From NCBI RefSeq assembly GCF_000189295.2, contig NC_016803.1, positions 3,390,001-3,422,000 on the forward strand: DNA of 32,000 bases, written 5' to 3'. Below are positions 1,593-30,672 of this stretch, piece after piece. The notes beneath the pieces are model-generated. The model had not been told where the DNA came from and did no database searches. It was given only the letters and a program-made list of their open reading frames with translations. Source of the stretch: Pseudodesulfovibrio mercurii (lineage in GTDB: Bacteria > Desulfobacterota > Desulfovibrionia > Desulfovibrionales > Desulfovibrionaceae). A program made the translations under genes and the position numbers. Within the stretch, counting starts at the first letter, position 1. Every line of letters begins with the position of its first letter.

Positions 1593-1603
1593 GCGGAGGC
1601 GGC

Positions 1604-1897: not shown

Positions 1898-1900
1898 GCC

Positions 1901-11409: not shown

Positions 11410-14400
11410 TTACGCCTTACGGACGTTGACCATGAAGGCCTTGGTTTCGGGGATGCCCGTGTTCGGGTCGCCTACGGACGGGGTCAGCAGGTTGGCGGAG
11501 TCGCCGCCATCCTTGGGCCAGGTCCAGCCGAAGTGCCAGGGCAGGCCCACCTGATGGACCACGGTGCCCTGGATGGTGAACGGCTTGAGCCGCTTGGTCA
11601 CGATGGCCTTGGCCCACAGGGAGCCGCGCAGGGAGTCCACGATGACCTTGGTGCCGTTCTCGATGCCGCGCAGTTCGGCCAGTTCCGGGCTCATTTCCAC
11701 GAAGATCTGCGGCTCGCATTCGGTCAGCCAGTCGCAGTTTCGGGTCATGAGGCCGGTCTGCCAGTGCTCGGTCACGCGGTAGGTGGTGCCGATCAGGGGA
11801 TACCTGGGATCGCACACGGCCTTTTCCTCGGCGTCGAACTTGAGCGCCGTGGGGTTGTGCAGGGTGCTCGAGAAGGGATGCGACTTCACCGGGCATTCCA
11901 GCGGTTCGTAGTATTCCGGGAACGGACCGTCGGCCCGGCCGGGGCCGAACAGCTGGCCGAAGCCGTGCTTGCGCATGATGAACGCGTACTTGGTTCCGGG
12001 GGCCCAGCCGCCGTCGGGCACGTCGCCCACCCACTTCTCGCCGTTCCAGGCGATGACCGCCTTCTGCGGGTTGTAGGGGTTGCCCTTGAGGTCAACCGAG
12101 GCGCGGTTGTAGAGCACGCGGCGGTTGACGGGCCAGCACCAGGAGAAGTTCGGGTACAGGCCGATGTTGGCCTGCTCCGCGGTCTGGTTGAGGTCGCGGC
12201 GGGCGGCCATGTTGCCCTTCTCCGTGTAGGAGTGGCAGTACAGCCAGTTGCCCGAACAGGTGGAGCCGTCGGCCTGCAGGAAGGCGAAGCTGGGAACCTG
12301 CTCGCCCTTCTTGTAGAGCTTGTCCTTGATCGTGGTGTCGCGGGTGAAGTGCCCGTTGATCAGCTTGGCCGTCTTGTGGGAGTCGAACACGCCGTCGGTG
12401 GCGATGGCGTCCCAGGTCAGCCGGGTGATGGGCTTGGAGTAGACGCCGCCTTCCTTCTCGTACAGGTGGCGGACTTCCTTCATCAGGTCATAGATGAGGT
12501 CGCCGTCCGGCTTCTGGCCGTTGGGGGCGTCCGGTCCCTTGTAGCGCCACTGCATCCAGCGGCCGGAGTTGGTGATGGAACCTTCCTTCTCGATGGAGAC
12601 GGCGCAGGGCAGGAAGAAGACCTCGGTCTTGATCTTGGACGGGTCCATTCCTGGTCCTTCCCAGAACCATCCGGTTTCGTTGGGGAAGATGTTAACGTTC
12701 ACCAGCCAGTCCAGCTTGGCCATGGCCTGTCTGTTCTTGTTGGCGTTGGCGCCGGAACAGGCGGGGTTCATGCCCCAGGCGAGCAATCCCTTGAACTTGC
12801 CCTTGTCCATTTTGTCGAACAGGGTCAGCCAGGAGTATTCCATGGCAGACAGGGAGTCGAGCCGCGGGAGATACTGGTAGGCGTCTTCCGGGGTGTCTTC
12901 CTGCCACATGGCCTTGATCAGCGAGGCGGAGTACTTCGGGAAGTTGCCCCACCAGTTGGCGGACTTGGGATCGTGGGAGACCGGCGTGTTGGCCTTGTTG
13001 TACGCGGCCAGGTCGGGCTGGGAACCCAGGGGGGTCGCCAGGTAGCCGGGCAGGATGTGGTACAGCAGGCAGTGGTCCGTGGACCCCTGGACGTTGGATT
13101 CGCCGCGCAGGGCGTTGACGCCGCCGCCGGCCACGCCGATGTTGCCGAGCAGCAGCTGGATCATGGCCATGGTACGGATGTTCTGCACGCCCACGGTGTG
13201 CTGGGTCCAGCCCATGGCGTACATGATGGTCCCGGCCTTGTCAGCCTTGCCGGTGGCCGCGTAGGTCTCGTACAGCTTGACCAGGTCTTCCTTCTTCATG
13301 CCCGAGATGTCGGCGACCTTGTCCAGATCATAGCGCTCGTAGTGCTTCTTGAGCAGCTGGTACACGCACTTGGGATCTTTCAGGGTCGGGTCCTTCTTCG
13401 GGTTGCCCTCGGCGTCCATGGCAAAGGCCCAGTTGGACTTGTCATAGGTCCGGGTGGACTCGTTGTAGCCGGAGAACAGGCCGTCGTTGAACGAGAACTT
13501 GTCGCCGACGATGAAGGAGGCGTTGGTGTAGTTGACCACGTAGTCGTGGAAGATCAGGTCCTTGTCCAGGATGTACTTGATCATGCCGCCGAGCACGGCG
13601 ATGTCCGCGCCGGAGCGGATGCCCGCGTAGAAGTCGGCCTTGGCCGAGGTCCTGGTGAAACGGGGATCGACGTGGATCAGGGTGGCGCCGTTTTCCTGCG
13701 CCTTGGTCACCCACTTGAAGGAAATGGGGTGGTTTTCGGCAGCGTTGCTGCCCATGATGAGAACACAATTGGAGTTCTGGATGTCAATCCAGTGGTTGGT
13801 CATCGCACCGCGTCCGAACGACTCTGCCAGAGCCGCAACAGTCGCGCTGTGTCAGATACGTGCCTGGTGCTCTATGTACACCAGGCCGAGGCTGCGGAGC
13901 ATGGTCTGGTAGGCCCAGCACTCCTCGTTGTCCAATGCGGCGGAGCCCAGGGAGGCGATGCCGTCGCAGCGGTTGACCACCTGGCCCTTGGCGTTCTTCT
14001 CGGTCCAGGTCGCGTCGCGGGTGTCCTTGATCCGGCGGGCGATGGTTTCCAGCGCCCAGGACAGGGAGACCTTCTTGAATTTGTTGGAGTAGGGAGCCCG
14101 GTACAGGACCGAGTCCGGACGGCGGTCGTTGTCGGCCAGCTGCCAGATGGAGGCGCCCTTGGCGCACAGGGCGCCTTCGTTGATCGGATGGTCGGGGTCG
14201 CCCTCGACGTTGATGGCCTTCATGTCCTTGAGGGACGTGTTGACGACCAGGCCGCAGCCCACGGCGCAGTAACAACATACGGTCGTGGTCTGCTTGCTCC
14301 ATTTCGGGTCCAGGGCCGATGCGTGGTCAGGCAGCGTCGCCGCCTTGGCCTTGCAGCCGAACCCGAGCCCGCCGAACGCCGTGGCCGTTGCCGCGACGGC

Positions 14401-14436
14401 GGAGAGCTTGAGGAAGTTTCTCCGGTTGGTGTGCAT
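11410..14436 (-). CDS. fdhA: periplasmic formate dehydrogenase catalytic (alpha) subunit, selenocysteine-containing, Tat-exported Mo/W-bis-PGD enzyme
   Basis: Track ORFs 13852..14436 and 11410..13803 are in one frame, separated only by TGA at 13852-13854. Translation reads ...LGLVYIEHQARI-U-HSATVAALAESFGRGAMTNHWIDIQNSNC, the canonical Sec active-site context. Twin-Arg signal MHTNRRNFLKLSAVAA. N-terminal FeS motif CCYCAVGC...C. 1008 codons. Confidence 0.95.
13819..13835 (-). other. candidate SECIS apical hairpin downstream of the fdhA UGA
   Basis: mRNA CGGCUCU-GGC-AGAGUCG forms a 7-bp stem (one G.U pair) starting 17 nt after the UGA. Flanking CGCG...CGCG could extend it into a stem-loop of about 45 nt. 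Position fits bacterial SECIS elements. Folding was done by eye only. Confidence 0.5.
13852..13854 (-). other. in-frame UGA selenocysteine codon of fdhA
   Basis: TCA on the plus strand is TGA on the minus strand, flanked by the conserved QARI / HSATV context of Sec formate dehydrogenases. Confidence 0.9.
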
Positions 14437-14974: not shown

Positions 14975-15904
14975 CTAGTCGGTGTCGGGCACCAGGGCGC
15001 AGAGGTAGGCGGCCAGGATCTCGGCCAGGGGCTTTTCGCGGTTGTTGAAGCGGAACTCCAGCTCCTTCATGTACAGGGGGAAGCGCTGGCAGGAGATGCC
15101 CCGGAACTTCTTGATGCGCGACTGGGCGTATCCCCAGAATTCGTCGTGCACCGCGTCGATGTGCGGGGGCTCGTCGTAGCGGCGGATGACCTCGTAGGGC
15201 AGGGAGTCGTTGCCGCAGAACATGAGCGCGTCGTACTCCTTGTAGCGGTCCGTGTAGACCAGGTTGCCCGAGCGGATGAGCTTCAGGTGGAAGTTCATGT
15301 GGAAGTGGAACAGGGTCTCGGCCTGGAAGCCGGGCACCAGGTCGATGAAGACCAGGTCGTCGCGGCGCAGGATGCCGTAGACCGGGATGGTGTCCATGCG
15401 CATCTCGCGCGGCCCGCCGGTCAGCCGGTTGCCCTTGAGGTAGGAGTCCAGCCCCGTGGCCGGGCTGATCAGCTGCCGGGCGTCCAGGGCGTTGGCCAGG
15501 ATGGCGAAGCGGATGGCGGTCAGGGCCTTGTAGACCGTGTTGTAGGACAGCCCGAGTTCCTCCTTCATCTGGTGAACCGAGCGCTCCTCCACGAACAGGA
15601 CGATGAGCCGCAGCCATTCGGCCGGGTTCAGAGCCCCGTTGTTGATCCACCGGCCCGAGAAGGGCTGGAAGGTGTACTTGCAGGCCGCGCAGCGCAGCCG
15701 TTCTCCGGACAGGGAGTAGACCTTGCGGTGGCCGCAGCGCGGGCAGAAGGGGTCGCCCGTGGGCCAGGCCAGCTCCAGCAGGTAGTCCCTGGCCTTGTCC
15801 TCGTCGTGCAGCAGGGCCTCGAAGGCCGCGCCGTGGTCCGGCGAAACGATGGCCGGCATGATGTGCGAACTGTTCGGCATGACGTCCCGTGGTGCTTCGG
15901 GCAT
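14975..15904 (-). CDS. IS1595/ISXO2-like transposase-family protein (Zn-ribbon + DDE-type domain), apparently without IS termini
   Basis: 309 aa. Zn-ribbon CPRCGHRKVYSLSGERLRCAACKYTF. Followed by the family-typical W..LI / HTH segment, then the candidates MRMDT, VYTDRYKEYDAL and HDEFWGYAQSRIKKFRG...YMKELEFRFNNRE. GGGAGG lies 5 nt upstream of the ATG at 15904. Starts only 15 nt after the fdhE stop. Confidence 0.85.
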   Translation of the reverse strand: MPEAPRDVMPNSSHIMPAIVSPDHGAAFEALLHDEDKARDYLLELAWPTGDPFCPRCGHRKVYSLSGERLRCAACKYTFQPFSGRWINNGALNPAEWLRLIVLFVEERSVHQMKEELGLSYNTVYKALTAIRFAILANALDARQLISPATGLDSYLKGNRLTGGPREMRMDTIPVYGILRRDDLVFIDLVPGFQAETLFHFHMNFHLKLIRSGNLVYTDRYKEYDALMFCGNDSLPYEVIRRYDEPPHIDAVHDEFWGYAQSRIKKFRGISCQRFPLYMKELEFRFNNREKPLAEILAAYLCALVPDTD

Positions 15905-18650: not shown

Positions 18651-18875
18651 ATGATCTACCCGGCCCCCATCCCCCTGGACCGCCTCAAGAGGGTCCTGAG
18701 CGTGCTGCGCGACAATCCCGGCCTGCCTCCGGCCGCCCTGGCCGAAGGGCGCGCGTCCGGCCCGGCCCGGTTTGATGCCCGGCTACAGGGCCTCGAGCAG
18801 GGAGGTCAGGGTGTCGCCCTGGGCCGTGTAGGTGGCGAGCAGGGCGTCGAGGGCGGCGTACTTGCGCTCCAGTGA
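18651..18875 (+). CDS. orphan ORF with strong SD; possibly a 5' gene remnant running antisense into fliD
   Basis: AAAGGAGG lies 8 nt upstream of the ATG at 18651. The first ~44 codons (18651-18782) have coding-like GC3. The last 93 nt overlap the fliD 3' end on the opposite strand. Confidence 0.2.
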   Translation: MIYPAPIPLDRLKRVLSVLRDNPGLPPAALAEGRASGPARFDARLQGLEQGGQGVALGRVGGEQGVEGGVLALQ

Positions 18876-20507
18876 CGTCTCCAACGCGTCCAACCGTTTC
18901 TCCTCATTGTAAATCTGGTTGTCCAGGCTGGTCACGCTCTCCTCGTAGTGGTCGATGAGGATGGTCAGGGAGCCGGTCTCCGCGTTGGTCACCGTGTCCA
19001 GGGCGTCGGACAGCTCGCCGATCTTGCCCTGCTTGACCCGGGCCGTGCCCTCGTAGTCGCCGTCCGCGCCCGAGGCGATGGACAGGTAGAGGCCCTTGGC
19101 GTCGCCCGAGGTGGCCAGGATGGTCTGGCCGTCTATGGCGGCCTCCTCGCCGTCGATGGTGGCCGAGGTGATCTCGCCGCCCGAGATGGTGTACTTGACC
19201 TCGTGCTCACCCGCTCCGGTGACCCCGTCGATGACCGAGATGACCTGGAAGTCCTCGCTGTCCGACTCGCCCTCGGCCCTGGCCGAGAACAGGGAGGCCA
19301 CGGCCGCGGCGTCCGTGTCCAGGGCGTCCTCCAGCTCATCCTCGTCCAGGAGGAGCTGGCCGTAGGTGTCGGAGTCCTCGTCCGTGTCCGTGTAGAAGCC
19401 GATTTGGGACAGGGCGTTGTAGTAGTCGCCGCCGGTCTCCTCGTCGTACCGCGTGAAGCCCAGGGCGGACGATGACAGGATGGACTTGATGTTGTTGTAG
19501 ACGATGTCCAGGGCGTAGCTGTCCAGGGTGTAGGTCTCGCTGTCGTCGTCCGTGTCCTGCTCCTCGGTGACGCGGCCGGTCAGGATCTGGATGTCCTCGA
19601 TGATGGCGTTGAGGGACTCCTGGAACTCCAGGATGGTGTCGTACATGTCGTCGGTGTCGTACTCCACCGAGACCTGGAGGGTGTCGCCGTCCGTGGTGTC
19701 CTTGAGGTTGAAGGTCAAGCCGTCCACCACGTCGTCGATGGCGTTGGAGTCGCGCTCGATCCAGTCGCCCTCGCCCGGCGGGAAGCCGTCCACCTTGATC
19801 TGCGAGTTCTGGCCGGTCTGGGTGTTGACGAAGCCGCCCGCGCTCATGCCGCTCAGGGAGCCCGTGTCCGTGATCGTGATGTTGTTGTCCGCGCCCGCGT
19901 CGCAGCTCTTGAGCATCAGGTAGCAGGCGTCGCCGTCGTTCATGATGGAGGCCTCGAACTTGTCGCGGGCGTCCACCGAGCCGTTGATGGTCGTGATCAG
20001 CCCCTCCAGGGTGGTCCCGGCGGCCACGTCGATGGTGATGTCCTCGCCGCCGTAGTTCACGGTCAGGGTGGTGGCCTCGTCGGCGATGACCGTGTCCTCG
20101 GACTCGTAGGCGGTGTCCATGTTCACCCAGACGTCGTTCAGGGCCAGCTGGTTGACGGAGATGGTGTGGATGCCCGGTTCGGCGTCGCCGTCGGCGTCCA
20201 CCTCCACCTGGTCGTCGCTGACCTCGGCGACCATGGAGTAGAACTCGTCGGGCTCGTCCATGTCGTCCAGGATGTCGTTGAATTCGTCGATCTCGTCCGA
20301 GAGCTGGTCCATGAGGTCGATGAGGTATTCGTACTCCTCCTTCTGGTCCTCGTATTCCTCCAGCTGGTAGCTCTCGGAATCCACGATGGCGTCGATGATC
20401 TCGGAGAAGTCCGTGCCGTTGCCGAGCCCCGAGAAGGAGATGTCCCCGGAGGTGGTCAGCGGCTCGTAGGCCTCGACGGTGCTGGAAAGGGAGGAAACGT
20501 AGCCCAT
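18783..20507 (-). CDS. fliD: flagellar filament capping protein FliD (hook-associated protein 2)
   Basis: 574 aa. N-terminal ISFSGLGNGTDFSEIIDAIV. C-terminal coiled coil LDNQIYNEEKRLDALETSLERKYAALDALL. GGAGG lies upstream. Starts 9 nt after flgL. Confidence 0.88.
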   Translation of the reverse strand: MGYVSSLSSTVEAYEPLTTSGDISFSGLGNGTDFSEIIDAIVDSESYQLEEYEDQKEEYEYLIDLMDQLSDEIDEFNDILDDMDEPDEFYSMVAEVSDDQVEVDADGDAEPGIHTISVNQLALNDVWVNMDTAYESEDTVIADEATTLTVNYGGEDITIDVAAGTTLEGLITTINGSVDARDKFEASIMNDGDACYLMLKSCDAGADNNITITDTGSLSGMSAGGFVNTQTGQNSQIKVDGFPPGEGDWIERDSNAIDDVVDGLTFNLKDTTDGDTLQVSVEYDTDDMYDTILEFQESLNAIIEDIQILTGRVTEEQDTDDDSETYTLDSYALDIVYNNIKSILSSSALGFTRYDEETGGDYYNALSQIGFYTDTDEDSDTYGQLLLDEDELEDALDTDAAAVASLFSARAEGESDSEDFQVISVIDGVTGAGEHEVKYTISGGEITSATIDGEEAAIDGQTILATSGDAKGLYLSIASGADGDYEGTARVKQGKIGELSDALDTVTNAETGSLTILIDHYEESVTSLDNQIYNEEKRLDALETSLERKYAALDALLATYTAQGDTLTSLLEAL

Positions 20508-20516
20508 GACGGCCTC

Positions 20517-21710
20517 CTAGATGTAGTCGAGCAGGGACATGCTCATGATGCTGGACGAGGTGGACAGGACCGCCTCGTACACGTAGTTGGCCTGCTCCAA
20601 CTCGACCACGAGCTGGGTGGCGTCCGCGTCCTCGATGGAACTGATGGAGTTGGTGGTCAGCGACTTGACCAGGGAGAGCGAGGTCTGGGTGTAGGTGATC
20701 TTGTTCTCCCGCGCGCCGATGTCGGCCGCGCCGGTCTCCACGGTCTCGTGGCAGTCGCCCAGGTCCTCGAGACACTGGGCCACGGCCTCGGAGTCCCCGT
20801 TCTGCATGTGGACGATGCAGTCGGACAGGGTCTCGAACAGGTTGGGCGAGCCGTAGGCCTGGCCCGTGGACGGGTCCACGCCCCCGAAGATGTCGCTGCC
20901 CACGGAGTTCATGTCCACGGACGTGCTCTCGGAGATGCCCACGGACATGGCCTTGGCACTGCCGGTGTAGACGCAGGCCGGGCGCAGGTAGAAGAGCGAG
21001 CCCCCGCCGTCGTCGTCGGCCGCCGTGACGGCCGTGGACGCGGCCAGCTCCACCTGGGCGTCGCCCAGGTCAAGGACCGTGTCGCCCGCGGCCAGGGTGG
21101 CCGAGGTCCAGGTGTCGCCGCCGTCCGTGGAGTATTCGTAGTCCAGGGCGTCGGTGCCCACGGTCCCGCTTGACGTGAAGCGCACGGCCACGGTGTCGTC
21201 CACCTCGCCGGTCAGGGAGACGAAGTCCGAGGCCGCGAGGGCGTCATTGGACAGGGTCACGCCCAACCCCATCTCGTAGGCGTTGTCCCCGGTGTCGTCC
21301 CCGGCGAAGATGGAGTCCGAGCCCACCTGGGTGTTGGCGATGGCGTACAGGGCGTCGAGGTAGCCCTGCATCTCCAGGGCCATCATGTCGAGTTCCTCGT
21401 CGGTGTAGGTCTCGGTGGAGGCCTGCTCGGCCAGCTCCAGGGCCGCCGTGATGGTCTCGCTGGCCGTGCCCAGGACGTCGTCGGCCGTGCCCAGGTAGTC
21501 CAGGGCCACGCCGCAGTTGTCGATGTACCCGGTCAGGGAGTTGCCGTAGCCGCTGAGTTCGACGATCCTGCCCATGCCCGCCGGGTCGTCCGACGGGCTG
21601 TTCACCTGCTTCTGGCTGGCGTTCATGATCGTCAGCTTGGTGACGTCGTTGAGCGCCGAGTTCATCTGGTTGAGGCTGAGCGAGTAGATCTGTGCCGTGC
21701 TGATGCGCAT
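20517..21710 (-). CDS. flgL: flagellar hook-associated protein 3 FlgL
   Basis: 397 aa. N-terminus MRISTAQIYSLSLNQMNSALNDVTKL...SPSDDPAG. Flagellin-like C-terminal helix. Position is directly after flgK. Confidence 0.9.
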   Translation of the reverse strand: MRISTAQIYSLSLNQMNSALNDVTKLTIMNASQKQVNSPSDDPAGMGRIVELSGYGNSLTGYIDNCGVALDYLGTADDVLGTASETITAALELAEQASTETYTDEELDMMALEMQGYLDALYAIANTQVGSDSIFAGDDTGDNAYEMGLGVTLSNDALAASDFVSLTGEVDDTVAVRFTSSGTVGTDALDYEYSTDGGDTWTSATLAAGDTVLDLGDAQVELAASTAVTAADDDGGGSLFYLRPACVYTGSAKAMSVGISESTSVDMNSVGSDIFGGVDPSTGQAYGSPNLFETLSDCIVHMQNGDSEAVAQCLEDLGDCHETVETGAADIGARENKITYTQTSLSLVKSLTTNSISSIEDADATQLVVELEQANYVYEAVLSTSSSIMSMSLLDYI

Positions 21711-21726: not shown

Positions 21727-23736
21727 TCAGACCATGTCCAGGACGGTTTCCATCATTTCCCTGGTCACGCTGATGATCTGTGCGGCGGCCTCGTAGGCCT
21801 GCTGGTACTTGGTCAGTTCGATGAGCTCCTCGTCCACGTTGACCTCGGAGGTCGAGGCCTGCTGCTCGTAGAGGTAGTCCACCGAGGTCTGGGCGTAGGT
21901 CTGCTGGAGCTCGGCGGCGGACGCGGCCGCGCCCACCGAGGCCACCAGGGAGGCCAGGGCCGAGGTCAGGGTGGTCTCGGTACCGCCCACGGTCACGGTC
22001 TGTTCGCCCAATTCGGCCATGATCGAGGCCACCTCGTTGGAGCCCGAGGATGTCAGGCCGTCCTCGCCGACCACGCCGGTGTTGAGGTGCGAGGTGTTCG
22101 TGGTCACGTAGTCGTCGATGCCGATGGTCCCGGCGTCGGTGCCGGTGAAGTAGGTGTTCAGGCCCAGCGCGGCCAGGAGCCCGGAGGTGTCGCCCGCGAC
22201 CTCGAACTCCATGTCCGTGCCCGAGGACAGGATCAGCTGTCCGTCGGTGATGGTGGCGGTCAGCTCCCCGGCGAAGGCCGCGTTGATGTCGGCGGCCACG
22301 TCGTCCAGGGAGTCGGTGGCCGGGTCGATGGACAGGATGGCCGTGGTCGAGACGTTGCCGTCCGCGTCGTAGGTGATCAGGGTCAGCTCGCCCGCCTCGA
22401 TGTTGTCCTCGTAGTGCAGGCCGCTGTTGCTGAGCATGGCCGACGAGTCGTCCACGGAGTAGCTGGCGGTCAGCGACGTGTGGTGTTCGAGCCCCGCGCC
22501 CTGGGAGTGGGCCGAGTTGACCTCCCAGATGATGGACTCGGCCAGGTCGTCCAGCCCGGCGATGGTGTCGTAGACCGTATCGTCGCGGACCGTGAACAGA
22601 CCGGCCAGGCTGCCGCTGGAGGTCCGCCCGGAGACGTTGTCGCCGCTGTCGTCGGTCAGGGGGGTGATGTTCTTCAGGCCGCCGTCGCCGGACTCCCAGT
22701 ACAGGCCGGACTTGGCCATGACCGTGTAGCGGTCGCCCTCGGCGTGGTCGGCCGTGCCGTCCTCGAACCAGAGGGTGATGCCCTCGATCTCCACCGAGTT
22801 GTCCTCGCCGTCGGCGGTGTAGAGCATGACGTCGCCGTTGTCGTCGGTCAGCCAGGTGCTGCCGCCGTCGGTGGAGACCTTGAACTGGGCCGTGCCGTCC
22901 GGGCCCGAGGAGACGAACTCGATGAGCAGCTCTTCGCCGGACTCGCCCGAGAAGTTCAGGGTCCCGTCGTAGTCCGAGCCGCGCACCAGGGACTGGGTCA
23001 CCCCGATGTCCGCGTAGACCAGGTTGTGGGTGTCGGTTCCGTCCACGAGCGAATATCCCTCCTCGGTCAGGATGGTGACCGTGTTGTCGGACTGGTAGAG
23101 GACGTCCACGCCGATGAGGGCGTCCAGCTCCCGGATCATCTGGTCGCGGTCGGACACGGCCTGGTTGTCGTCCGGGTTGGCCGCGATGGCCGCGTTGGCC
23201 TCGGCGATGTCGCTGATCAACTGGTTGGCCTCGTCCACCTGGTCCTGGATGTCCGCGTTGATGGTCTCGACCATGGTGTCCAGGGTGGAGGAGGTGGAGT
23301 TCAGCGCGTAGACCAGGGTCTCGGTGGTGCCGAGCAGGTCCTCGCGGGCGGACAGGGAGTCCGGGTCCGTGACCAGCTCGTTCCAGGCGTCGAAGAACTC
23401 CTCCATGACGTCGGACAGGCCGCCGTCGGACTGGTTCAGCAGGGAATCGAGCTGGTCCAGGTAGTCCAGCGCGCTGGACTGGGTGGCCAGGTCGGCCACC
23501 GCGTCCAGGTACTGTGCCTCCACGAACTTGTCCCACTCGGACTGGATGGACGTGATGTCCGCGCCCGTGCCCACGGTCAGACCGTTGATGGTGATGGAGC
23601 TGCTCGTGTCGTACTCCACCGTGGTGCGCTGGTAGCCGGTGGTGTCCGCATTGGCGATGTTGTTGGACGCGTTGTTGACCGAGACCTGCGCGTTTTGCAG
23701 GGACGTCTTCCCGATGTTGTAGAGATTGTTGATCAT
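21727..23736 (-). CDS. flgK: flagellar hook-associated protein 1 FlgK
   Basis: 669 aa. N-terminus MINNLYNIGKTSLQNAQVSVNNASNNIANADTTGYQR. C-terminus ELIELTKYQQAYEAAAQIISVTREM. Confidence 0.93.
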   Translation of the reverse strand: MINNLYNIGKTSLQNAQVSVNNASNNIANADTTGYQRTTVEYDTSSSITINGLTVGTGADITSIQSEWDKFVEAQYLDAVADLATQSSALDYLDQLDSLLNQSDGGLSDVMEEFFDAWNELVTDPDSLSAREDLLGTTETLVYALNSTSSTLDTMVETINADIQDQVDEANQLISDIAEANAAIAANPDDNQAVSDRDQMIRELDALIGVDVLYQSDNTVTILTEEGYSLVDGTDTHNLVYADIGVTQSLVRGSDYDGTLNFSGESGEELLIEFVSSGPDGTAQFKVSTDGGSTWLTDDNGDVMLYTADGEDNSVEIEGITLWFEDGTADHAEGDRYTVMAKSGLYWESGDGGLKNITPLTDDSGDNVSGRTSSGSLAGLFTVRDDTVYDTIAGLDDLAESIIWEVNSAHSQGAGLEHHTSLTASYSVDDSSAMLSNSGLHYEDNIEAGELTLITYDADGNVSTTAILSIDPATDSLDDVAADINAAFAGELTATITDGQLILSSGTDMEFEVAGDTSGLLAALGLNTYFTGTDAGTIGIDDYVTTNTSHLNTGVVGEDGLTSSGSNEVASIMAELGEQTVTVGGTETTLTSALASLVASVGAAASAAELQQTYAQTSVDYLYEQQASTSEVNVDEELIELTKYQQAYEAAAQIISVTREMMETVLDMV

Positions 23737-23763: not shown

Positions 23764-25314
23764 CTAGCGCTTCAGGCCGATGGCCGTGGACAGCAGGGTG
23801 TCCGCCGTGGTGATGATCTTCGAGTTGGCCTGGTAGGCCGCCTGGATGATGATCAGGTTGGTCAGCTGGGTGGCGGTGTCCACGTTGGACTGCTCCAGGG
23901 AGTTGGAGGCGATGGTCCCGAACCCGGCCGAACCCGGCGTGCCGACCAGGGCCTGGCCGGACTCGGTGGTGGCGGAGTAGAGGTTGCCGCCCTCGGAGTA
24001 GAGCCCCTGGGTGTTGGTGAAGTCGGCCAGGGCGAAGGTGTACAGCTCCTGGCTCTGGCCGTTGGTGTAGCTACCCTCGATGACGCCGTTCTCGTTGATG
24101 GTGATGTCCGTCAGTTCGCCGGGCGCGTAGCCGTCCTGGCTCAGGGTGTAGGTGGCCGAGCTGGAGGTGGTGCTGGTGGTGGCCGCCGTGGACAGGACCC
24201 CGGTGTTGAATGAGGGCAGTTCGTCCGGGGTGGTCGCGGCGGTCATGTCGTCCAGGGAGTCGATGCCGCCGGTGGTGTCCCAGCCCGTGCCCGTGGCGAA
24301 GTCCGAGTTGGAGAGGCCGAAGTTCATGGACACGGTCTGGTTCTCGTCCGCGCCGGTGAAGTTGCACTCGAACACGGGCAGCCCGTCGTTGTCGAAGTCG
24401 GCCAGGACCCAGTTCTCCTCGGCCAGGGGGTCGGTGGTGTCGGTCGGGGTGTCGGACAGGGTGAAGGCGGTCATGGACTGCAGGTCGCCCGAGGTGGAGA
24501 AGGTCAGGGTGCCGGTGACCAGCAGGCCCGCCGCGCTGGTGTCGGCCATGTCCGTGCCCTCGAAGTCGCGCATGTCCTCGCTGGCGTCGCAGCAGACCAT
24601 GTATTCCCAGACGATGGAGCCGTCGTCGGTCTCCACGGGATCGTAGTACACGGTCAGGTCGTGGGACGCGCCGTTCTCGTCGTAGACGGTGATGGTCGTC
24701 TGGTAGGCGTAGCGCGAGTCGTCCAGGGCCGGGTCCGCGGTGCCGTCGTAGATCTCGAACAGGGCGGCGTAGGGGTTGGTGGAGGAGGTCGTGTTGTCCG
24801 TCTCGGTGGAGTCCAGGTTGACCTGGATGGCGACCTCGCCGGTGGCCTGGGGCGGGGACTGGGAATTGTCGATCTGGATGTCCACCAGCCCGCCGGTGAT
24901 GGAGCCGTCCTCGGTCTCCCATCCCTGGACGTGGTTGCCGTGGGAGTCCACCAGGTAGCCGTCCGTGTCGAGGGTGAAGCCGCCGTCGCGGGTGTAGTAG
25001 GTGTTGCCCGTGTCCGGGTCGACCACGATGTAGAAGCCGTCGCCGTTGATGGCCACGTCCGTGACCGAGTTGGTGGTCTCGTAGGCCCCCTGGGAATAGT
25101 CCGTGGTCAGGGAGGAGGTGGTCACGCCGTTGCCCACCTGGCCGAGGGAGCCCCCGGCGTAGACCGTGGAGTAGAACACGTCCTCGAAGGCGATGGACAC
25201 GGACTTGTAGCCGGTGGTCGTGGAGTTGGCGAGGTTGTTGCTGACCACAGAAGTCGCCTGGCTCTGGGCCTGGAGGCCGGAAATGCCGGTATACATGGAA
25301 CCGCTGATGCTCAT
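23764..25314 (-). CDS. flgE: flagellar hook protein FlgE
   Basis: 516 aa. N-terminus YTGISGLQAQSQATSVVSNNLANSTTTGYK. C-terminus LEQSNVDTATQLTNLIIIQAAYQANSKIITTADTLL. Confidence 0.93.
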   Translation of the reverse strand: MSISGSMYTGISGLQAQSQATSVVSNNLANSTTTGYKSVSIAFEDVFYSTVYAGGSLGQVGNGVTTSSLTTDYSQGAYETTNSVTDVAINGDGFYIVVDPDTGNTYYTRDGGFTLDTDGYLVDSHGNHVQGWETEDGSITGGLVDIQIDNSQSPPQATGEVAIQVNLDSTETDNTTSSTNPYAALFEIYDGTADPALDDSRYAYQTTITVYDENGASHDLTVYYDPVETDDGSIVWEYMVCCDASEDMRDFEGTDMADTSAAGLLVTGTLTFSTSGDLQSMTAFTLSDTPTDTTDPLAEENWVLADFDNDGLPVFECNFTGADENQTVSMNFGLSNSDFATGTGWDTTGGIDSLDDMTAATTPDELPSFNTGVLSTAATTSTTSSSATYTLSQDGYAPGELTDITINENGVIEGSYTNGQSQELYTFALADFTNTQGLYSEGGNLYSATTESGQALVGTPGSAGFGTIASNSLEQSNVDTATQLTNLIIIQAAYQANSKIITTADTLLSTAIGLKR

Positions 25315-25344: not shown

Positions 25345-26022
25345 TTACTGGGTGGCGTAGGTCACGTCGGCCAGGTACACGGTCCGGCCGTCATCGAGGG
25401 TCAGGACGACGCCGTCGTCGGAATTGCTCACGCCGGTCACGGTGCCGGTGGTCGAGGTCGAGCAGCTCACCTCGTCGCCGTCTTCGTCGGTGGCCGTGGC
25501 CAGGACGTAGTAGTTGCCGTCATCGGCCTCGTCGCCGTTGTAGTCGGTGCCGTCCCAGGCGAAGGACACGGTTCCCGCTTCAAGCCCGGTGAAGGTCTGG
25601 GTGTCCACGATGGACCCGCTGGTGTCGTAGATGTTCACGACCAGCTCGGCCGCGTCGTCGTCCAGGGTCAGGTACAGGGAGGAGACGTCGTCCCCGTCCT
25701 TGTTGATGGTGTAGCCGTCGGCCTCCACCTCCTTGCCCAGGTAGTCGAGTCCGGAGGAGATTCCCTGAGCGTCGAGGGCGTCGGTCAGGGTGTCCATCTT
25801 CTCGTTCATCTCGGTGAGCTGTTCGAGCTGGGAATACTGGGTCATCTGATCGACCATCTGGGTGTTGTCCACGGGCTCGGTGGGGTCCTGGTACTCGAGC
25901 TCGGTGCACAGCAGGGTGATGAAGTCGTCCGAGGTCAGCGACGTGGCGCTCTCGGTGGTCGTGGTCGTGTCGGTGTACGACGCGAGCAGGGACTCGTAGT
26001 AGCTGGTGGTGTCGATGCTCAT
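25345..26022 (-). CDS. flgD: flagellar hook assembly (capping) protein FlgD
   Basis: ATG at 26022 with AAAGGAGGAAGG upstream. Motif DDFITLLCTELEYQDPTEPVDNTQMVDQMTQYSQLEQL is typical of FlgD. 225 aa. The start overlaps the upstream sigma gene's stop (ATGA at 26019-26022). Confidence 0.9.
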   Translation of the reverse strand: MSIDTTSYYESLLASYTDTTTTTESATSLTSDDFITLLCTELEYQDPTEPVDNTQMVDQMTQYSQLEQLTEMNEKMDTLTDALDAQGISSGLDYLGKEVEADGYTINKDGDDVSSLYLTLDDDAAELVVNIYDTSGSIVDTQTFTGLEAGTVSFAWDGTDYNGDEADDGNYYVLATATDEDGDEVSCSTSTTGTVTGVSNSDDGVVLTLDDGRTVYLADVTYATQ

Positions 26023-26603
26023 GAGACCTTCCTCCTTTCGGACGGCTCCGGCTCGTCGGTTTCGGCCAGGGGGGCGGAGGCGCCGTAGTGGATGCGCAGC
26101 CGGTCGAGGGCCTGGAACTTGATGCTGCGGACCGTGCGCGAGGTGATGCCGAGCTTCTGAGCGATCTCGCAGGCGATCAGTCCGTCCCGGTAGTAGAGGG
26201 TGACGACCTCGGCCTGGCGGTCGGTCAGCACGCCCGCGGGCAGGCTGAACAGGTTGGCGTCGAGGCCGCCCTCGGAGCTGCTCTGGGGGGCGTCGGTGAG
26301 CACGGACTCCATCCAGCGCAGCTTCTTTCTGTAGTAGTCGATGGCGGTGGTGCGGCAGATGATGTTGAGCCAGGTGATGAAGGAGCACTTCTCGTCGTTG
26401 TAGCGGGAGATATAGTCGTTCTTGAAAATCTTCAGGGCGATTTCCTGGTATATATCATCTATCTCCGCACTCTGGAGGTTGATACTCCTGGACTTCACAA
26501 AGTTTATGATGAGCTTATATATGAGTCTGGAATGTTCACTGAACAGACGGTCATATGATATCTCGTCATATCGTTTCTGGATTTCCATTACTGTGCTGCT
26601 CAT
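26019..26603 (-). CDS. short sigma-70-family RNA polymerase sigma factor, ECF-like (regions 2 and 4 only)
   Basis: ATG at 26603 follows GGAGGTTAAAA. Region-2-like DDIYQEIALKIFKN...FITWLNIICRTTAIDYYRKK. Region-4 HTH LTDRQAEVVTLYYRDGLIACEIAQKLGITSRTVRSIKFQALDRL. 194 aa with only about 30 aa of linker. The upstream ATGs of track ORF 26019..26654 lie 5' of the predicted promoter. Confidence 0.85.
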   Translation of the reverse strand: MSSTVMEIQKRYDEISYDRLFSEHSRLIYKLIINFVKSRSINLQSAEIDDIYQEIALKIFKNDYISRYNDEKCSFITWLNIICRTTAIDYYRKKLRWMESVLTDAPQSSSEGGLDANLFSLPAGVLTDRQAEVVTLYYRDGLIACEIAQKLGITSRTVRSIKFQALDRLRIHYGASAPLAETDEPEPSERRKVS

Positions 26604-26627
26604 TTTTAACCTCCTGCATTCCAGTTG

Positions 26628-26643
26628 AGCAATGCAGGTGCCG
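26628..26643 (-). promoter_or_regulatory. sigma-54 (RpoN) type promoter for the sigma-flgDEKL-fliD operon
   Basis: The minus strand reads CGGCAC-CTGCA-TTGCT, against the consensus TGGCAC-N5-TTGCW. The GG and GC dinucleotides are separated by exactly 10 nt. The predicted start is about 14 nt upstream of the ATG at 26603. Confidence 0.5.
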
Positions 26644-26852
26644 ACCAACATCAAGTTGGATTAAAGTCGTATCGATTTTTCTTTGAGCGACATTCACGTG
26701 AAATAAAGATTTCCGGTTCGACGGGGCAGATCGCCTGAGAAATTGAAGAAAATTTAAGGTTGATTCGTGGGGAAAGGGGCGCGGGGCGGCCCGGACCGGG
26801 CGCGTGGCGGGGGAGGGGAGATTTTTTCCTTCTCATGCGTGAAAAGTGCAAC

Positions 26853-26910
26853 CGTCCGGGGATGCCGGACGATAGTACCATTGAGGGCCGGTCCCTAAGG
26901 GGACCGGCCC
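26853..26910 (-). terminator. tandem hairpins downstream of the flagellin gene
   Basis: On the minus strand: GGGCCGGTCCCC-TTA-GGGACCGGCCC (26885-26910), 20 nt after the stop. Then CGTCCGG-CATCC-CCGGACG (26853-26871) followed by GTTGCACTTTTC. The U-tracts are weak. Confidence 0.55.
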
Positions 26911-26930: not shown

Positions 26931-27791
26931 CTAGCCGCCGATGAGCGACAGGGCCATCTGCGGGAGCGAATTGGCCTGCGAGAGCATCGCCACGGCAGAT
27001 TGGGTAATGATCTGCTCCTTGGTGTACTCGGTCATCTCGGTGGCGACATCCACATCGGAGATGCGGGACTCCGAGGCCTGAAGGTTCTCGGCCTGGATTT
27101 CGAGGTTGGAGATGGTGGCCGTCAGACGGTTCTGCATGGCGCCGAGGTTGGCCCGGACATTGTCCTTGGACTCGATGGCGTCGTTCAGGGCGTCCAGGGC
27201 GGCCTGGGCGGCCGCCTGGGTGGAGACCACCGCGCCCGCCTTGTCCACGCCCGCCGCCAGGCCCACGCCCAGGGCGGAGGCCGTGCAGTTGGCGATGGTC
27301 ACGTCGTACTTGTCCTCCGCGGCGTCGTTGCCCGTGCCGAAGTGGATGGTCACGCCGTCGGCGGAGAGGTTGCCGTTGAGCAGGTAGATACCGTTGAAGT
27401 CCGTGGCGTTGGCGATACGGGTGATCTCCGAGGCCATGGCCTGGTATTCGGAGTCGATGATCAGCCGCTGGGCGTCCGTGTAGGTACCGGTGGCGGCCTG
27501 CTCGGCCAGTTCCTTCATGCGGATGAGCTTTTCATCGATGACGGACAGCGCGCCGTCGGCGGTCTCGATCATGGAGATGCCGTCGTTGGCGTTGCGGATG
27601 CCCTGGTTGAGGGTGGAGATGTCCGAGCGCATGAGCTCGCGGACGGCCAGGCCGGCGGCGTCGTCGGCCGAGGAGTTGACGCGAAGGCCCGAGGACAGGC
27701 GTTCCGTGGACGTGCTCAGCGCGCTGTAGGCGCCGTTCAGGTTACGGGCGGCGGCACTTGCCATAAGGTTGTTGTTAACTACGAGAGCCAT
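26931..27791 (-). CDS. fliC: flagellin
   Basis: ATG at 27791 (MALVVNNNLMASAAARNLNGAYSALSTSTERLSSGLRVNSSADDAAGLAV) with AAGGAGG upstream. C-terminus AENLQASESRISDVDVATEMTEYTKEQIITQSAVAMLSQANSLPQMALSLIGG. 286 aa. Confidence 0.93.
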   Translation of the reverse strand: MALVVNNNLMASAAARNLNGAYSALSTSTERLSSGLRVNSSADDAAGLAVRELMRSDISTLNQGIRNANDGISMIETADGALSVIDEKLIRMKELAEQAATGTYTDAQRLIIDSEYQAMASEITRIANATDFNGIYLLNGNLSADGVTIHFGTGNDAAEDKYDVTIANCTASALGVGLAAGVDKAGAVVSTQAAAQAALDALNDAIESKDNVRANLGAMQNRLTATISNLEIQAENLQASESRISDVDVATEMTEYTKEQIITQSAVAMLSQANSLPQMALSLIGG

Positions 27792-27963
27792 GATTCCTCC
27801 TTGAATGGTTATGCTTCCATGCATTTTCTCCGTCACGATGATCGGAGAACCAAAATTGCCCATGTATACGAAACGGACAGGGGCAAACGTTCATGGAGGA
27901 AAAATATGCCGGGCAAAGATTCGGCGGCCGGCGGCGGTTTGCTGAATGTAAAACTGAGGTTTC

Positions 27964-27982
27964 TTAATGTTCTTAACATTAA
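27964..27982. promoter_or_regulatory. perfect 8-bp inverted repeat TTAATGTT-CTT-AACATTAA in the divergent flagellin / regulator intergenic region
   Basis: Read directly. It sits in an AT-rich stretch. A second inverted repeat, ATCATAA-(14 nt)-TTATGAT, lies at 27999-28026 just upstream of the regulator gene's SD. Confidence 0.4.
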
Positions 27983-28047
27983 TTGATTCGGATTTTATAT
28001 CATAATTTCTTCTGAATCTTTATGATGCATTCAAAAGGAGTGTGTTG

Positions 28048-28758
28048 ATGAAAGACCTGTTGCTGATCGACGACGACCCTGAACTGGCCGAAATGCTCCA
28101 GGCCTATCTCGGCGGCGAGGGGCTCGGCCTCGATGCGGCCGTATCCGGGAGCGCCGGTCTGGAAATGGCCCGGAAAGGGGATTACGAGCTGGTCATCCTG
28201 GACGTCATGCTCCCGGATACCAGCGGGTTCAACGTGCTGACCAAGCTGCGCGCCGTGTCCGGCGTGCCGGTCATCATGCTCACCGGGCGCGGGGAGGAGA
28301 TCGACCGGGTGGTCGGCCTGGAGATGGGCGCGGACGACTACGTGTCCAAGCCGTTCCAGCTGCGTGAGCTGCTGGCCCGCATCCGCGCGGTGCTGCGCCG
28401 CTACGGCAGCGGGGCCGAGGAGGCCGGTGACATGGCCGCGGTCAAGGCCAAGCCGGGCATCGAGATCGGCGAGGTCCACCTGAACCGCAACGCCCGGAAC
28501 ATGACCATCGGCGGCCTGCCCGTGCACCTGACCTCCACCGAGTTCGACATCCTGGAGATGCTCGCCCTGAACATGGGCAACGTGGTGGACCGCGTGAGCC
28601 TCATGGAGAAGGCGCTGGGCCGTAACGAGGATTTCGACGACTACGTGCTCAACGTGCACATGAGCAACCTGCGCAAGAAGCTGGACCGCAACGTCAGCAT
28701 CAAGACCATCCGGGGGCGGGGCTATCTCCTGGCCGTCCCCCAGGAAGAGGCCGTGTAG
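28048..28758 (+). CDS. OmpR/PhoB-family response regulator (REC + winged-helix DNA-binding domain)
   Basis: ATG at 28048 with AAAGGAG 7 nt upstream. REC motifs LLIDDD, LVILDVMLPDTSG and YVSKPF. Winged helix: LTSTEFDILEMLALNMGNVVDR...IKTIRGRGYLL. Confidence 0.92.
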   Translation: MKDLLLIDDDPELAEMLQAYLGGEGLGLDAAVSGSAGLEMARKGDYELVILDVMLPDTSGFNVLTKLRAVSGVPVIMLTGRGEEIDRVVGLEMGADDYVSKPFQLRELLARIRAVLRRYGSGAEEAGDMAAVKAKPGIEIGEVHLNRNARNMTIGGLPVHLTSTEFDILEMLALNMGNVVDRVSLMEKALGRNEDFDDYVLNVHMSNLRKKLDRNVSIKTIRGRGYLLAVPQEEAV

Positions 28759-30672
28759 ATGGGGCTCGACCGGTGGCGGCCGGTTTCCCTGTGCATCGTC
28801 TTCCTGCTGCTTTGGTCCACGGCCTGCCTGGCCGATGACGACCTGTCCGAGCTGGGGCTCGAGGAGCTCATGCAGGTGGAGGTGGCCAGCGCCACCCGCC
28901 GGACCGAGCCCCTGTCGCGCATCCCGGCGGCGGTCACGGTCCTGACCGAGGAGGACATCTTCCGGTCGGGCGCGACCAACGTGCCCGAGGCGTTGCAGCT
29001 CGTGCCCGGCGTGCACGTGGCCCAGACCAACACCGACCGTTGGGCCGTCGGCATCCGGGGCTTCAACGGCATCCTGAGCAACAAGCACCTGGTCCTGGTG
29101 GACGGCAGGCCGGTGACCTCGCCGGTCATGACCGGGGTGCAGTGGGACAACATCGTGCCCATCAGCATGATCAAGCGCATCGAGGTGGTGCGCGGCACCC
29201 GCACCAGCCTGTGGGGCGCGGAGTCCTTCACCGGGGTCATCAACATCATCACCAAGAACGCCTTCGAACTGCAGGGCGGACAGTCCGTGACCACGGGCGG
29301 CACCCGGGGCGTGGGCGAGACCGTGCGCCAGGGGGTGAAGACCGGCGACAATTCGGCCCTGGCGGTCTACGGCACGGGCCAGTACCTCAACGGCAACTGG
29401 CTGACCAGCCGCCACGGGGACCGCGACGGCAACGAGTGGAACAAGGTCCAGGGCGGCCTGCGCGCGGACTGGGAGAACGCCTTCACCGACGCCCTGTCCG
29501 TGCAGTGCGACCTGGTCCGCTCCAACACCGAGGAGGACGGTCCCGGCGGTCCCGGTCCGGGAGGCGTCCCGGAGACCCGCTCGCGCAGCGACGTCAACGG
29601 CTACGCCCAGTTCGTTTGGGACCGGGCCACGGGCCTGGACTCCAACCTGCGCTTCCGGACCTCCTACACCCGCGACACGGCCATGCTCGCCGACCTGGAC
29701 GGCGGGGTGAACGTCCTGGACGCCGAGCTGACCTCGGCCATGGAGCAGATGGGCCGCCACTACCTGACCTGGGGCCTGGGCACCCAGTATTTCTGGGACG
29801 ACGTGCACGACGGGAGCAACACGAACATCGACCGGGAGCACATCTACACCTGGACCGGCAGCGGCTTCCTGCGCGACCGCATCACCCTGCTGCCGGAGTC
29901 CCTCTATTTCATCGCCGGGCTGAAGGCCGACGCCCTGGGCGAGGGGACCACTGAGCTCCAGCCTACGGTCCGCCTGCTGCACACCCGGGACGACGCCGAG
30001 TACTGGCTGGCCGTGTCGCGCGGGGTGCGCGCGGACACCCGCTACCAGCGCAGCGGGACCTACGTGATCAACGTCGGGGGCACGGACTACCAGGTCGAGG
30101 CGCCGGGCAACCTCAAGACCGAAAAACTCGTCTCCTACGAGGCGGGCTACCGTCAGGCCCTGACCCAGGACGCCCGGTTCGACCTCTCCCTGTACGTCAA
30201 CGACTACTCCGAACTGCTCATGCTCGAGCTGGACAAGACCACCCACACGGCCAAGGTGACCAACTCCCTCAAGGGCACGGCCTACGGCCTGGAGGCCATG
30301 TTCGAGTGGACCGCCGCCGACTGGCTGACCCTCAAGCCCTCGGTCAGCCTCATCTACCAGAACCTCTACGGCCTGGAGTCCGGGCCGGTGGGCGACTCCA
30401 TGCCCGAAGAGGGGTTCGGCGGCGAGGTCAAGCTGCAGATCCTGACCAAGCCGCTCAAGGACGTGGGCTTCGACCTCTTTCTCGGCTACATCGACAGCCC
30501 GGACCAGCTCCACCTGCCCGCCTACTTCAACGTGGACGCCCACGCCTCCTGGCGGGTCTCGGACGCGCTCCTGCTCGAACTCATCGGCCGCAACCTCGGC
30601 GGCTCCCACGAACAGTTCTCGGAAATGGCCGTGGGCCCGAGCCTGGATTGCCGGATAACCTGGGACTTCTGA
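28759..30672 (+). CDS. TonB-dependent outer-membrane receptor
   Basis: The ATG directly abuts the regulator's stop (TAG ATG). It has a signal peptide. Plug motifs are VTVLTEEDIFRSGATNVPEALQLVPGV, IRGFN and IEVVRGTRTSLWGAESFTGVINIITK. Beta-barrel-like alternating C-terminal part ends in ...ITWDF (terminal aromatic). Confidence 0.9.
   Translation: MGLDRWRPVSLCIVFLLLWSTACLADDDLSELGLEELMQVEVASATRRTEPLSRIPAAVTVLTEEDIFRSGATNVPEALQLVPGVHVAQTNTDRWAVGIRGFNGILSNKHLVLVDGRPVTSPVMTGVQWDNIVPISMIKRIEVVRGTRTSLWGAESFTGVINIITKNAFELQGGQSVTTGGTRGVGETVRQGVKTGDNSALAVYGTGQYLNGNWLTSRHGDRDGNEWNKVQGGLRADWENAFTDALSVQCDLVRSNTEEDGPGGPGPGGVPETRSRSDVNGYAQFVWDRATGLDSNLRFRTSYTRDTAMLADLDGGVNVLDAELTSAMEQMGRHYLTWGLGTQYFWDDVHDGSNTNIDREHIYTWTGSGFLRDRITLLPESLYFIAGLKADALGEGTTELQPTVRLLHTRDDAEYWLAVSRGVRADTRYQRSGTYVINVGGTDYQVEAPGNLKTEKLVSYEAGYRQALTQDARFDLSLYVNDYSELLMLELDKTTHTAKVTNSLKGTAYGLEAMFEWTAADWLTLKPSVSLIYQNLYGLESGPVGDSMPEEGFGGEVKLQILTKPLKDVGFDLFLGYIDSPDQLHLPAYFNVDAHASWRVSDALLLELIGRNLGGSHEQFSEMAVGPSLDCRITWDF

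Follow-up and report, generated by a model that had tools for sequence, protein, structure and literature searches.

A hook-operon ECF-type sigma factor in Pseudodesulfovibrio mercurii and a conserved candidate promoter at the adjacent flagellin gene

Flagellar hierarchies are textbook examples of assembly-coupled transcription, and the FliA/FlgM pair is treated as their near-universal late switch. A conserved alternative in environmentally important sulfate reducers appears to place a sigma factor of the extracytoplasmic function (ECF) type between sigma-54 and flagellin, physically coupled to synthesis of the hook cap. It is described here from a 32,000-nt stretch of Pseudodesulfovibrio mercurii (NC_016803.1, 3,390,001-3,422,000; hereafter the window, whose own positions serve as coordinates), the FlgD of which is 100% identical to P. 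mercurii FlgD. The sigma gene opens the flgD-flgE-flgK-flgL-fliD operon, and the most likely role of its product is to activate the neighbouring flagellin gene via a conserved ECF-type promoter. The new element is this candidate promoter, T[GA]AAC[GA]-N16/17-CGTAT[AT], conserved at flagellins beside the hook-operon sigma gene. The design is real, conserved and uncharacterised; it is a variant of the flagellar sigma cascade and not a new kind of system.

Described systems closest to this locus

In Vibrio, Pseudomonas, Campylobacter and Helicobacter, late flagellar control runs from sigma-54 to FliA, a middle-tier alternative sigma factor that activates flagellin and is paired with FlgM. The sigma factor of the window would occupy the same tier below sigma-54. 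It differs from FliA in having no sigma3 domain and in its associated motif, which is of the GAAC..CGT type and not TAAA-N15-GCCGATAA. The genetic setting differs as well: no FlgM is linked to the sigma gene, which is the first cistron of flgD-E-K-L-fliD and coupled to flgD, and no FlgM-like open reading frame (ORF) was found in the window. A search of the literature for FliA/FlgM in Pseudodesulfovibrio found nothing.

The late sigma factor SigD of Bacillus subtilis is likewise co-transcribed with hook and basal-body genes, in the fla/che operon, and there CsrA-FliW gates flagellin translation. However, SigD is a three-domain member of the FliA family that is controlled by FlgM and encoded at the far end of a 27-kb sigma-A operon, whereas the present factor, a two-domain ECF sigma, is encoded by the first gene of a sigma-54 operon. 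Another likeness is offered by HrpL of the Hrp type III systems in Pseudomonas syringae and Erwinia, in which a sigma-54 promoter with its enhancer-binding protein drives an ECF sigma without an anti-sigma, and this in turn drives type III substrates. HrpL differs in serving an injectisome, in being monocistronic and in its box, GGAACC-N15/16-CCACNNA; no specific relationship to HrpL appeared among the top NCBIfam matches of the window's sigma. Classical pairs of an ECF sigma and a zinc-binding (zf-HC2, ZAS) anti-sigma are resembled by a sister variant of the locus described below, which also carries a matching promoter 5′ of its sigma gene. The window's variant departs from such pairs in that it has no anti-sigma gene and a sigma-54 promoter replaces the autoregulatory one.

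Among ECF regulators of flagellin, the only one found described in the literature is RpoE6 of Azospirillum brasilense. It was reported in 2025, together with Asf6, as an ECF sigma in a flgD-E-K-L-fliC2-fliD-fliS cluster that is needed for a small flagellin (PMC12826043). Its gene occupies the end of a fliC2-fliD-fliS-rpoE6-asf6 operon, whose fliC2 promoter (CGCCAG-N16-CGTGAG) is the site of RpoE6 autoregulation, and RpoE6 is accompanied by an anti-sigma; orthologues in Alphaproteobacteria share more than 50% identity, and the paper describes neither sigma-54 input nor flgD coupling (PMC12826043). RpoE6 is thus a precedent for an ECF sigma driving a flagellin gene. A preliminary description of the window had placed a group-4-like sigma embedded in the hook operon outside the known scheme; this is softened here, since RpoE6, an unrelated ECF, already controls flagellin (PMC12826043). 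The two factors share 23% identity (33 bits, the RpoE6 query being optical-character-recognition text of Fig. S1, in which small errors are possible), and an hhalign score of 59 reflects the shared ECF fold only. Judged from their sequences they are not orthologous, and their similarity is at a generic ECF level. This looks like independent recruitment and suggests that ECF sigmas were drawn into flagellin control more than once.

The hook-operon sigma factor and the flagellin motif

The features on which the comparison turns are the following.

26019..26603, minus strand: ECF-type sigma gene (194 aa), first cistron of the operon; evidence from Pfam, NCBIfam, AlphaFold2 and the ratio of nonsynonymous to synonymous substitution rates (dN/dS)
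26931..27791, minus strand: flagellin gene (286 aa), the proposed target; Pfam Flagellin_N and Flagellin_C
27865..27893, minus strand: candidate ECF-type flagellin promoter TGAACG-N15-TTCGTATA; unique in the window, with evidence from a footprint and motif counts
26628..26642, minus strand: predicted sigma-54 -24/-12 promoter GGCACCTGCATTGCT; sole exact match in the window, with GG and TTGCT invariant
26019..26036, minus strand: predicted translational-coupling junction, with the flgD Shine-Dalgarno AGGAGG within the last sigma codons and the overlap ATGA
25345..26022, minus strand: flgD, hook cap; Pfam FlgD, FlgD_ig and FlgD_tudor
23764..25314, minus strand: flgE, hook; Pfam
21727..23736, minus strand: flgK, hook-associated protein 1; Pfam
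20517..21710, minus strand: flgL, hook-associated protein 3 (397 aa); Pfam Flagellin_N and Flagellin_C at low scores, position conserved
18783..20507, minus strand: fliD, filament cap; Pfam

Pfam assigns Sigma70_r2 to residues 20-94 of the sigma protein (33.6 bits) and Sigma70_r4 to residues 125-170 (48.1 bits), and finds neither region 3 nor region 1.1 of sigma-70 in its 194 residues. The NCBIfam model of the ECF superfamily, TIGR02937, covers residues 17-170 at 67.1 bits (cutoff 42.9). The FliA/WhiG model TIGR02479 reaches 32.1 bits against a cutoff of 189.6 and aligns with residues 126-170 only, that is, with region 4; none of the curated NCBIfam ECF subfamily or equivalog models reaches its cutoff. 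In the AlphaFold2 model (mean predicted local distance difference test score, pLDDT, 70), two helical domains (residues 17-103 and 128-175) are separated by some 24 disordered linker residues, which leave no room for a cryptic sigma3 domain. The top PDB matches of this model in Foldseek are ECF sigmas, namely SigL, SigK and SigH of M. tuberculosis, sigmaE of E. coli, BldN and AlgU, with FliA and WhiG ranked below them. On domain content, profile scores, model and fold matches, the hook-operon sigma is ECF-type and not FliA.

Close relatives number 78, at 46-90% identity, and every one is from Pseudodesulfovibrio. The family alignment holds 46 invariant residues, clustered in sigma2 and sigma4; dN/dS against Pseudodesulfovibrio orthologues is 0.09-0.46, and on these sequences purifying selection acts on the gene. 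More distant relatives (30-45% identity) were obtained by a profile search of the full representative library, and five of these loci were inspected (L036, L038, L039, L041 and L042). The family boundary lies at about 113 bits: weaker matches in the library are generic ECFs in unrelated contexts (L040), and L037 is too short to be placed relative to it. All named members belong to Pseudodesulfovibrio, Halodesulfovibrio, Fundidesulfovibrio or Desulfocurvus, and the family is proposed to be specific to the Desulfovibrionaceae lineage.

The sigma gene is tied to flgD at the level of single nucleotides. Its TGA (26021..26019) overlaps the flgD ATG (26022..26020) in the sequence ATGA (26022..26019), and AGGAGG (26036..26031) is contained in the sigma reading frame, 8 nt 5′ of this flgD start codon. 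Such a start-stop overlap, as ATGA or of 11 nt, is present in 11/11 loci checked and also in L041 and L042. All 78 Pseudodesulfovibrio relatives end in ..RRKVS or similar, which encodes AGGAGG-N-TCATGA; this C-terminus is conserved because the ribosome-binding site and start codon of flgD are conserved there. From flgD to fliD the genes follow on one strand with gaps of 30, 27, 16 and 9 nt, and a pattern scan found no terminator-like site on that strand within the sigma-to-fliD operon.

Thirteen loci of the sigma-flgD type were examined, the window included, from Pseudodesulfovibrio, Halodesulfovibrio and other relatives, and all 13 have the layout flagellin / sigma-flgD-flgE-flgK-flgL. Gene order is identical through fliD in 8/8 genome loci. 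The flagellin gene lies immediately 5′ of the sigma gene in these eight and in L036, L038, L041 and L042, four loci that share the arrangement together with the sigma/flgD overlap; the L038 cluster includes Halodesulfovibrio spirochaetisodalis WP_066852896.1.

The predicted sigma-54 promoter of the window is an exact GGCAC-N5-TTGCT about 25 nt 5′ of the sigma ATG, with a leader of about 15 nt that carries GGAGG. Taken alone, the match GGCACCTGCATTGCT is not significant, as 1.8 matches with at most one mismatch are expected by chance, and the case for the promoter is made by its conservation across loci. Upstream alignments comprise nine loci, with L036, L038, L041 and L042 inspected separately. 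The flagellin-sigma intergenic region is only 51% identical in this alignment and has many indels, yet GG-N10-TTGCT is invariant. The element reads GGAAT-N5-TTGCT in L036 and L042, GGTAT-N5-TTGCT in L038 and GGCAT-N5-TTGCT in L041, so that a -24/-12 element precedes the sigma gene in 13/13 loci. In D. vulgaris, the sigma-54 activator DVU1063 has a regulon that includes the fliK-flgD-flgE hook operon, DVU1445-1443 (PMC4641369), which makes sigma-54 control of hook genes the family norm. No ECF motif precedes the window's sigma gene, and an autoregulatory promoter was thus not found there.

These results bear out the structural part of the preliminary description, which had reported a 194-aa sigma with regions 2 and 4 only and too short for FliA, a stop codon overlapping the flgD start at 26019-26022, hook and hook-associated genes following at 9-30 nt on the same strand, a near-consensus sigma-54 promoter just upstream and no adjacent FlgM-like or anti-sigma ORF. 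The sigma-flgD arrangement, for which it had proposed a wider survey, recurs across several genera.

At the flagellin gene, the nine-locus upstream alignment shows T-AACG and T-CGTATA as invariant blocks, with 15 unconserved nucleotides between them. In the window the full motif is TGAACGTTTGCCCCTGTCCGTTTCGTATA (27893..27865, minus strand). It is unique there (0.04 expected) and in each locus. Across 558 kb of fetched locus sequence, T[GA]AAC[GA]-N16/17-CGTAT[AT] has 14 matches against 0.67 expected from shuffled sequence, and 13 of these lie 66-82 nt 5′ of a flagellin ATG, all in sigma-containing loci. The 13 include L041, L042 and both Halodesulfovibrio-type flagellins (TAAACA..CGTATT), and wherever the upstream sequence of a sigma-containing locus could be read, the motif was present.

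ECF promoters characteristically have AAC in the -35 and CGT in the -10 element. The flagellin motif carries this AAC/CGT signature, a match to the ECF promoter pattern at the level of sequence alone. The sigma-28 pattern TAAAG-N11-14-GCCGATA occurs neither in the window nor in the 38 loci scanned for it, and the FliA promoters of D. ferrophilus, O. alaskensis and D. vulgaris read CTAAAGT-N12-GCCGATA (PMC9769857 Fig. S4); compared with these, the flagellin motif has CGT at the place of CGA, and its spacer exceeds theirs by 2 bp. A sigma-70 scan reported nothing at the motif, and the last two positions of its TATAnn vary freely in the nine loci, which together make a sigma-70 promoter unlikely. 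The pattern scans of the window agree with the earlier observation that the flagellin gene has no sigma-28 or sigma-54 promoter.

Relatives without the sigma gene form a natural comparison. D. aminophilus (L033), Megalodesulfovibrio paquesii (L034) and a metagenomic contig (L035) have FlgD proteins 34-45% identical, and their gene order is fliK-flgD-flgE, then flagellin. All three of these hook-adjacent flagellins have a clear sigma-54 promoter, TGGCAC/T-N5-TTGCTT, and lack the ECF-type motif. Motif and sigma gene therefore occur together and are missing together.

A second comparison comes from the sister variant, represented by Fundidesulfovibrio butyratiphilus (L032; sigma 28% identical) and by a locus with a Desulfocurvus vexinensis-type protein (L039; 32% identical). 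Here the order is sigma, an ORF of 91-98 aa, then flgD-flgE-flgK-flgL. The small ORFs (L032 5496-5771, L039 6585-6881) contain HxxxCxxC, as HFRKCRMC and HLVECPLC respectively, and score 21.1 bits against zf-HC2, just under the Pfam cutoff of 22.2; they look like small soluble anti-sigma candidates of the ZAS type. A pattern search found TGGATG-N15-CTCGTATA 5′ of the sigma gene in both loci; MAFFT failed to bring this motif into register, as its surroundings are too divergent. The -10 and spacing equal those of the flagellin motif and the -35 differs, as expected from divergent sigma4 domains. Autoregulation from their own ECF-type promoter is a hallmark of ECF sigmas and, like a co-transcribed anti-sigma, frequent among them without being universal. 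A promoter of the autoregulatory type in L032 and L039 thus ties a CGTATA -10 with N15 spacing to this sigma family, and it is the best available link between the two in the sequences compared. The adjacent flagellin, which the preliminary description had put forward as the sigma's candidate target, accordingly gains support from two sides, the conserved motif 66-82 nt 5′ of its ATG and the same -10 and spacing before the sigma gene of relatives with an anti-sigma.

One of the sigma-containing loci has a second, tandem flagellin (L042 3381-3787) without the ECF-type motif, preceded instead by a sigma-54-like TGGAGT-N5-TTGCA; on these sequences, neighbouring flagellins may be under different sigma factors. 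In D. ferrophilus, a fliA mutant is reported still to form truncated flagella and three fliC promoters are unassigned, which would fit a third promoter class. The tandem flagellins Dde_1501/1502 of Oleidesulfovibrio alaskensis G20 are listed with 'unknown' promoters (PMC9769857). This lead was dropped, as an RpoN promoter has been mapped for Dde_1501 and none of the named members of the sigma family is from that organism.

A proposed three-tier cascade and its alternatives

The arrangement suggests a cascade from sigma-54 to an ECF sigma made with the hook proteins and from there to flagellin, with the ECF factor acting as the late-gene sigma. The probability of this reading is put at roughly 60%. 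Transcription would start at the sigma-54 promoter, presumably with a flagellar enhancer-binding protein, and yield a single sigma-flgD-flgE-flgK-flgL-fliD mRNA. The sigma would be translated first, and ribosomes would pass on to flgD through the internal Shine-Dalgarno sequence and the ATGA overlap. Through this coupling, appearance of the sigma would be confined to times of hook and junction protein synthesis, and its amount would roughly follow theirs. The preliminary description had suggested a dedicated checkpoint or late-gene factor produced stoichiometrically with hook proteins; of this, the checkpoint and the stoichiometry are inferences. It would then guide RNA polymerase to T[GA]AACG-N15-TYCGTATA 5′ of the flagellin gene, as the association of motif and sigma gene suggests. 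With no linked anti-sigma, the cascade itself would be the source of the temporal delay, and CsrA-type sites in the flagellin leader might fine-tune its output; this last step is speculative. In the sister variant, the zf-HC2-like anti-sigma would have been kept, with autoregulation from the promoter of equal -10 and spacing.

The leader in question is short and strongly conserved.

27792..27823, minus strand: flagellin 5′ leader, with a hairpin UGCAUGGAAGCA presenting GGA in its loop, followed by the Shine-Dalgarno sequence AAGGAGGA

Within it, GCATGGATGC and TCAAGGAGGA are invariant in the nine-locus alignment. The computed fold presents one GGA in the hairpin GCAUGGA(U/A)GC, and a second GGA lies within the Shine-Dalgarno sequence. 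The same elements are found in L038 (395-430 and 2485-2520), L041 (3765-3810) and L042 (2490-2525). CsrA sites in flagellin mRNAs typically show GGA placed like this, as is known from B. subtilis hag, and FliW/CsrA-type translational control of the flagellin is plausible from the leader's sequence.

A more far-reaching version of the cascade can be drawn tentatively, and we regard it as doubtful. An ancestral ECF sigma, autoregulated and controlled by an anti-sigma, would have lost the anti-sigma and come under the control of the sigma-54 hook promoter, so that co-translation alone times flagellin expression. The checkpoint would have moved to the mRNA (the CsrA-type sites), and the role of principal late sigma in Pseudodesulfovibrio, Halodesulfovibrio and relatives would fall to this factor and not to FliA.

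Several observations weigh against the assignment of the flagellin motif to the hook-operon sigma. Its sigma4 domain fits the general r4 model (48 bits) better than the ECF r4_2 model (32 bits). The spacer from AAC to CGT is 17-18 nt, slightly above the typical length for ECF promoters, and the flagellin -10 TCCGTATA is loosely like the sigma-28 -10 GCCGATAA, so that recognition by FliA is conceivable. A divergent gene for an OmpR-family regulator is also conserved beside flagellin and could encode its true specific regulator. The main rival explanation builds on the promoter: another sigma, either a drifted FliA/sigma-28 or an unlinked ECF, would read the flagellin motif, and the hook-operon factor would control a different regulon, for example envelope or chemotaxis genes. 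The -35 T[GA]AA also vaguely recalls the TAAA of the sigma-28 promoter, FliA is present in other Desulfovibrionaceae, and the link between sigma and motif is one that we infer. Yet in three Desulfovibrio species the promoters read by FliA are of the canonical kind, with a different spacing and a CGA core, and 13 of the 14 motif matches adjoin a hook-operon sigma. Moreover, the hook-adjacent flagellins of sigma-less genera lack the motif and use sigma-54, and the same -10 and spacing precede the sigma gene in the anti-sigma variant. Reading of the flagellin promoter by another sigma is, on this balance, unlikely. The OmpR-family neighbour underlies a further alternative, in which the motif is that regulator's operator, or else a sigma-70 promoter, and the sigma is incidental to flagellin. 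Besides the conserved divergent regulator gene, it can draw on TTAAGAA direct repeats with 10-nt spacing in the shared intergenic region. These repeats, however, lie about 70 nt 5′ of the -35, nearer the regulator's own start codon, and the motif is bipartite with promoter geometry, fixed spacing and a set distance of 66-82 nt from the ATG. The sigma-70 scan is empty at this place, where critical sigma-70 -10 positions are unconserved, and in the Desulfocurvus-like L039 the regulator gene adjoins the sigma operon without an intervening flagellin gene. We consider this explanation improbable.

The two other alternatives concern the sigma protein itself. It may drive flagellin and nevertheless be restrained by an unlinked, possibly secreted, FlgM-like anti-sigma, which would make a true hook-completion checkpoint like that of FliA/FlgM. 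Late flagellar sigmas are usually under a checkpoint, and the small soluble zf-HC2-like protein encoded right after the sigma gene in sister loci indicates that this family can be under anti-sigma control. Such an ORF is nonetheless absent from 13/13 loci of the window's variant, and the exchange of an autoregulatory ECF-type promoter for one of the sigma-54 type is expected if control became transcriptional; CsrA-type leader sites could supply the checkpoint instead. An unlinked anti-sigma is therefore quite unlikely. Finally, the protein might be a degenerate sigma-like remnant without a role in transcription, retained for the flgD ribosome-binding site at the 3′ end of its gene. A DNA-level reason of this kind accounts for the conservation of no more than the last 5 residues, however; the invariant residues cluster in sigma2 and sigma4, dN/dS is low as given above, and the family is retained at 30% identity across genera with its neighbours unchanged. 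A remnant is highly improbable.

The three-tier cascade makes a simple pair of sigma and promoter, predicted in detail (TGAACG-N15-TCCGTATA). P. mercurii ND132 is a model for mercury methylation and is genetically tractable. The two natural variants, with and without an anti-sigma, offer a ready comparison for the loss or replacement of a checkpoint.

Further features of the window

Two more elements lie between the flagellin and sigma genes.

26717..26742, minus strand: AT-rich element, TTAAGTTTTATTCA-like; partly conserved columns in the nine loci, with a similar element in L036
26885..26910, minus strand: hairpin 3′ of the flagellin stop; stem kept by compensatory changes in the nine loci, with a T-tract after it in L007 and L008

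The AT-rich element is about 90-110 nt 5′ of the sigma-54 promoter and is by its sequence a candidate site for IHF or an enhancer-binding protein. The hairpin is probably a terminator that divides the flagellin transcript from the sigma operon, as its compensatory changes suggest. The only intervening ORF, 26651..26881 (76 aa), was rejected as a gene or anti-sigma, having no Pfam match and lying in an indel-rich region; neither the window nor any of the 12 further loci of its variant has a co-transcribed anti-sigma ORF.

The OmpR-family response regulator gene (28048-28758, plus strand) is divergent from flagellin and is followed by a gene for a TonB-dependent receptor (28759-30672, plus strand). 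An 869-aa ORF on the opposite strand (28000..30609, minus) was rejected in favour of these two. The regulator is a conserved neighbour in Pseudodesulfovibrio, in Halodesulfovibrio-type loci and in L041 and L042, where a Plug receptor comes next; the L041 region also has DUF4154 and a CHASE8 kinase. The regulator of the Desulfocurvus-like L039, directly beside the sigma operon, is 47% identical. The direct repeat TTAAGAA-N3-TTAAGAA (10-nt period; 27959-27977, minus strand) lies in the conserved block AATGTTAAGAACATTAAGAAAC of the flagellin/regulator intergenic region and may, to judge from its sequence, be the response regulator's operator.

Elsewhere, no Rfam families were found in the window. 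The catalytic subunit of a formate dehydrogenase (11410-14436, minus strand) has a twin-arginine translocation signal, Fe4S4 and molybdopterin domains and an in-frame TGA in HQARI-U-HSATV, which is a selenocysteine codon and does not mark a pseudogene. Between the formate dehydrogenase genes and fdhE/fdhD lies an IS1595-family transposase gene (14975-15904, minus strand; DDE_Tnp_IS1595 and zinc ribbon). At 44-3124 (plus strand), subunit I of a haem-copper oxidase is encoded together with a subunit II that carries two fused cytochrome c domains, in a nominally anaerobic sulfate reducer.

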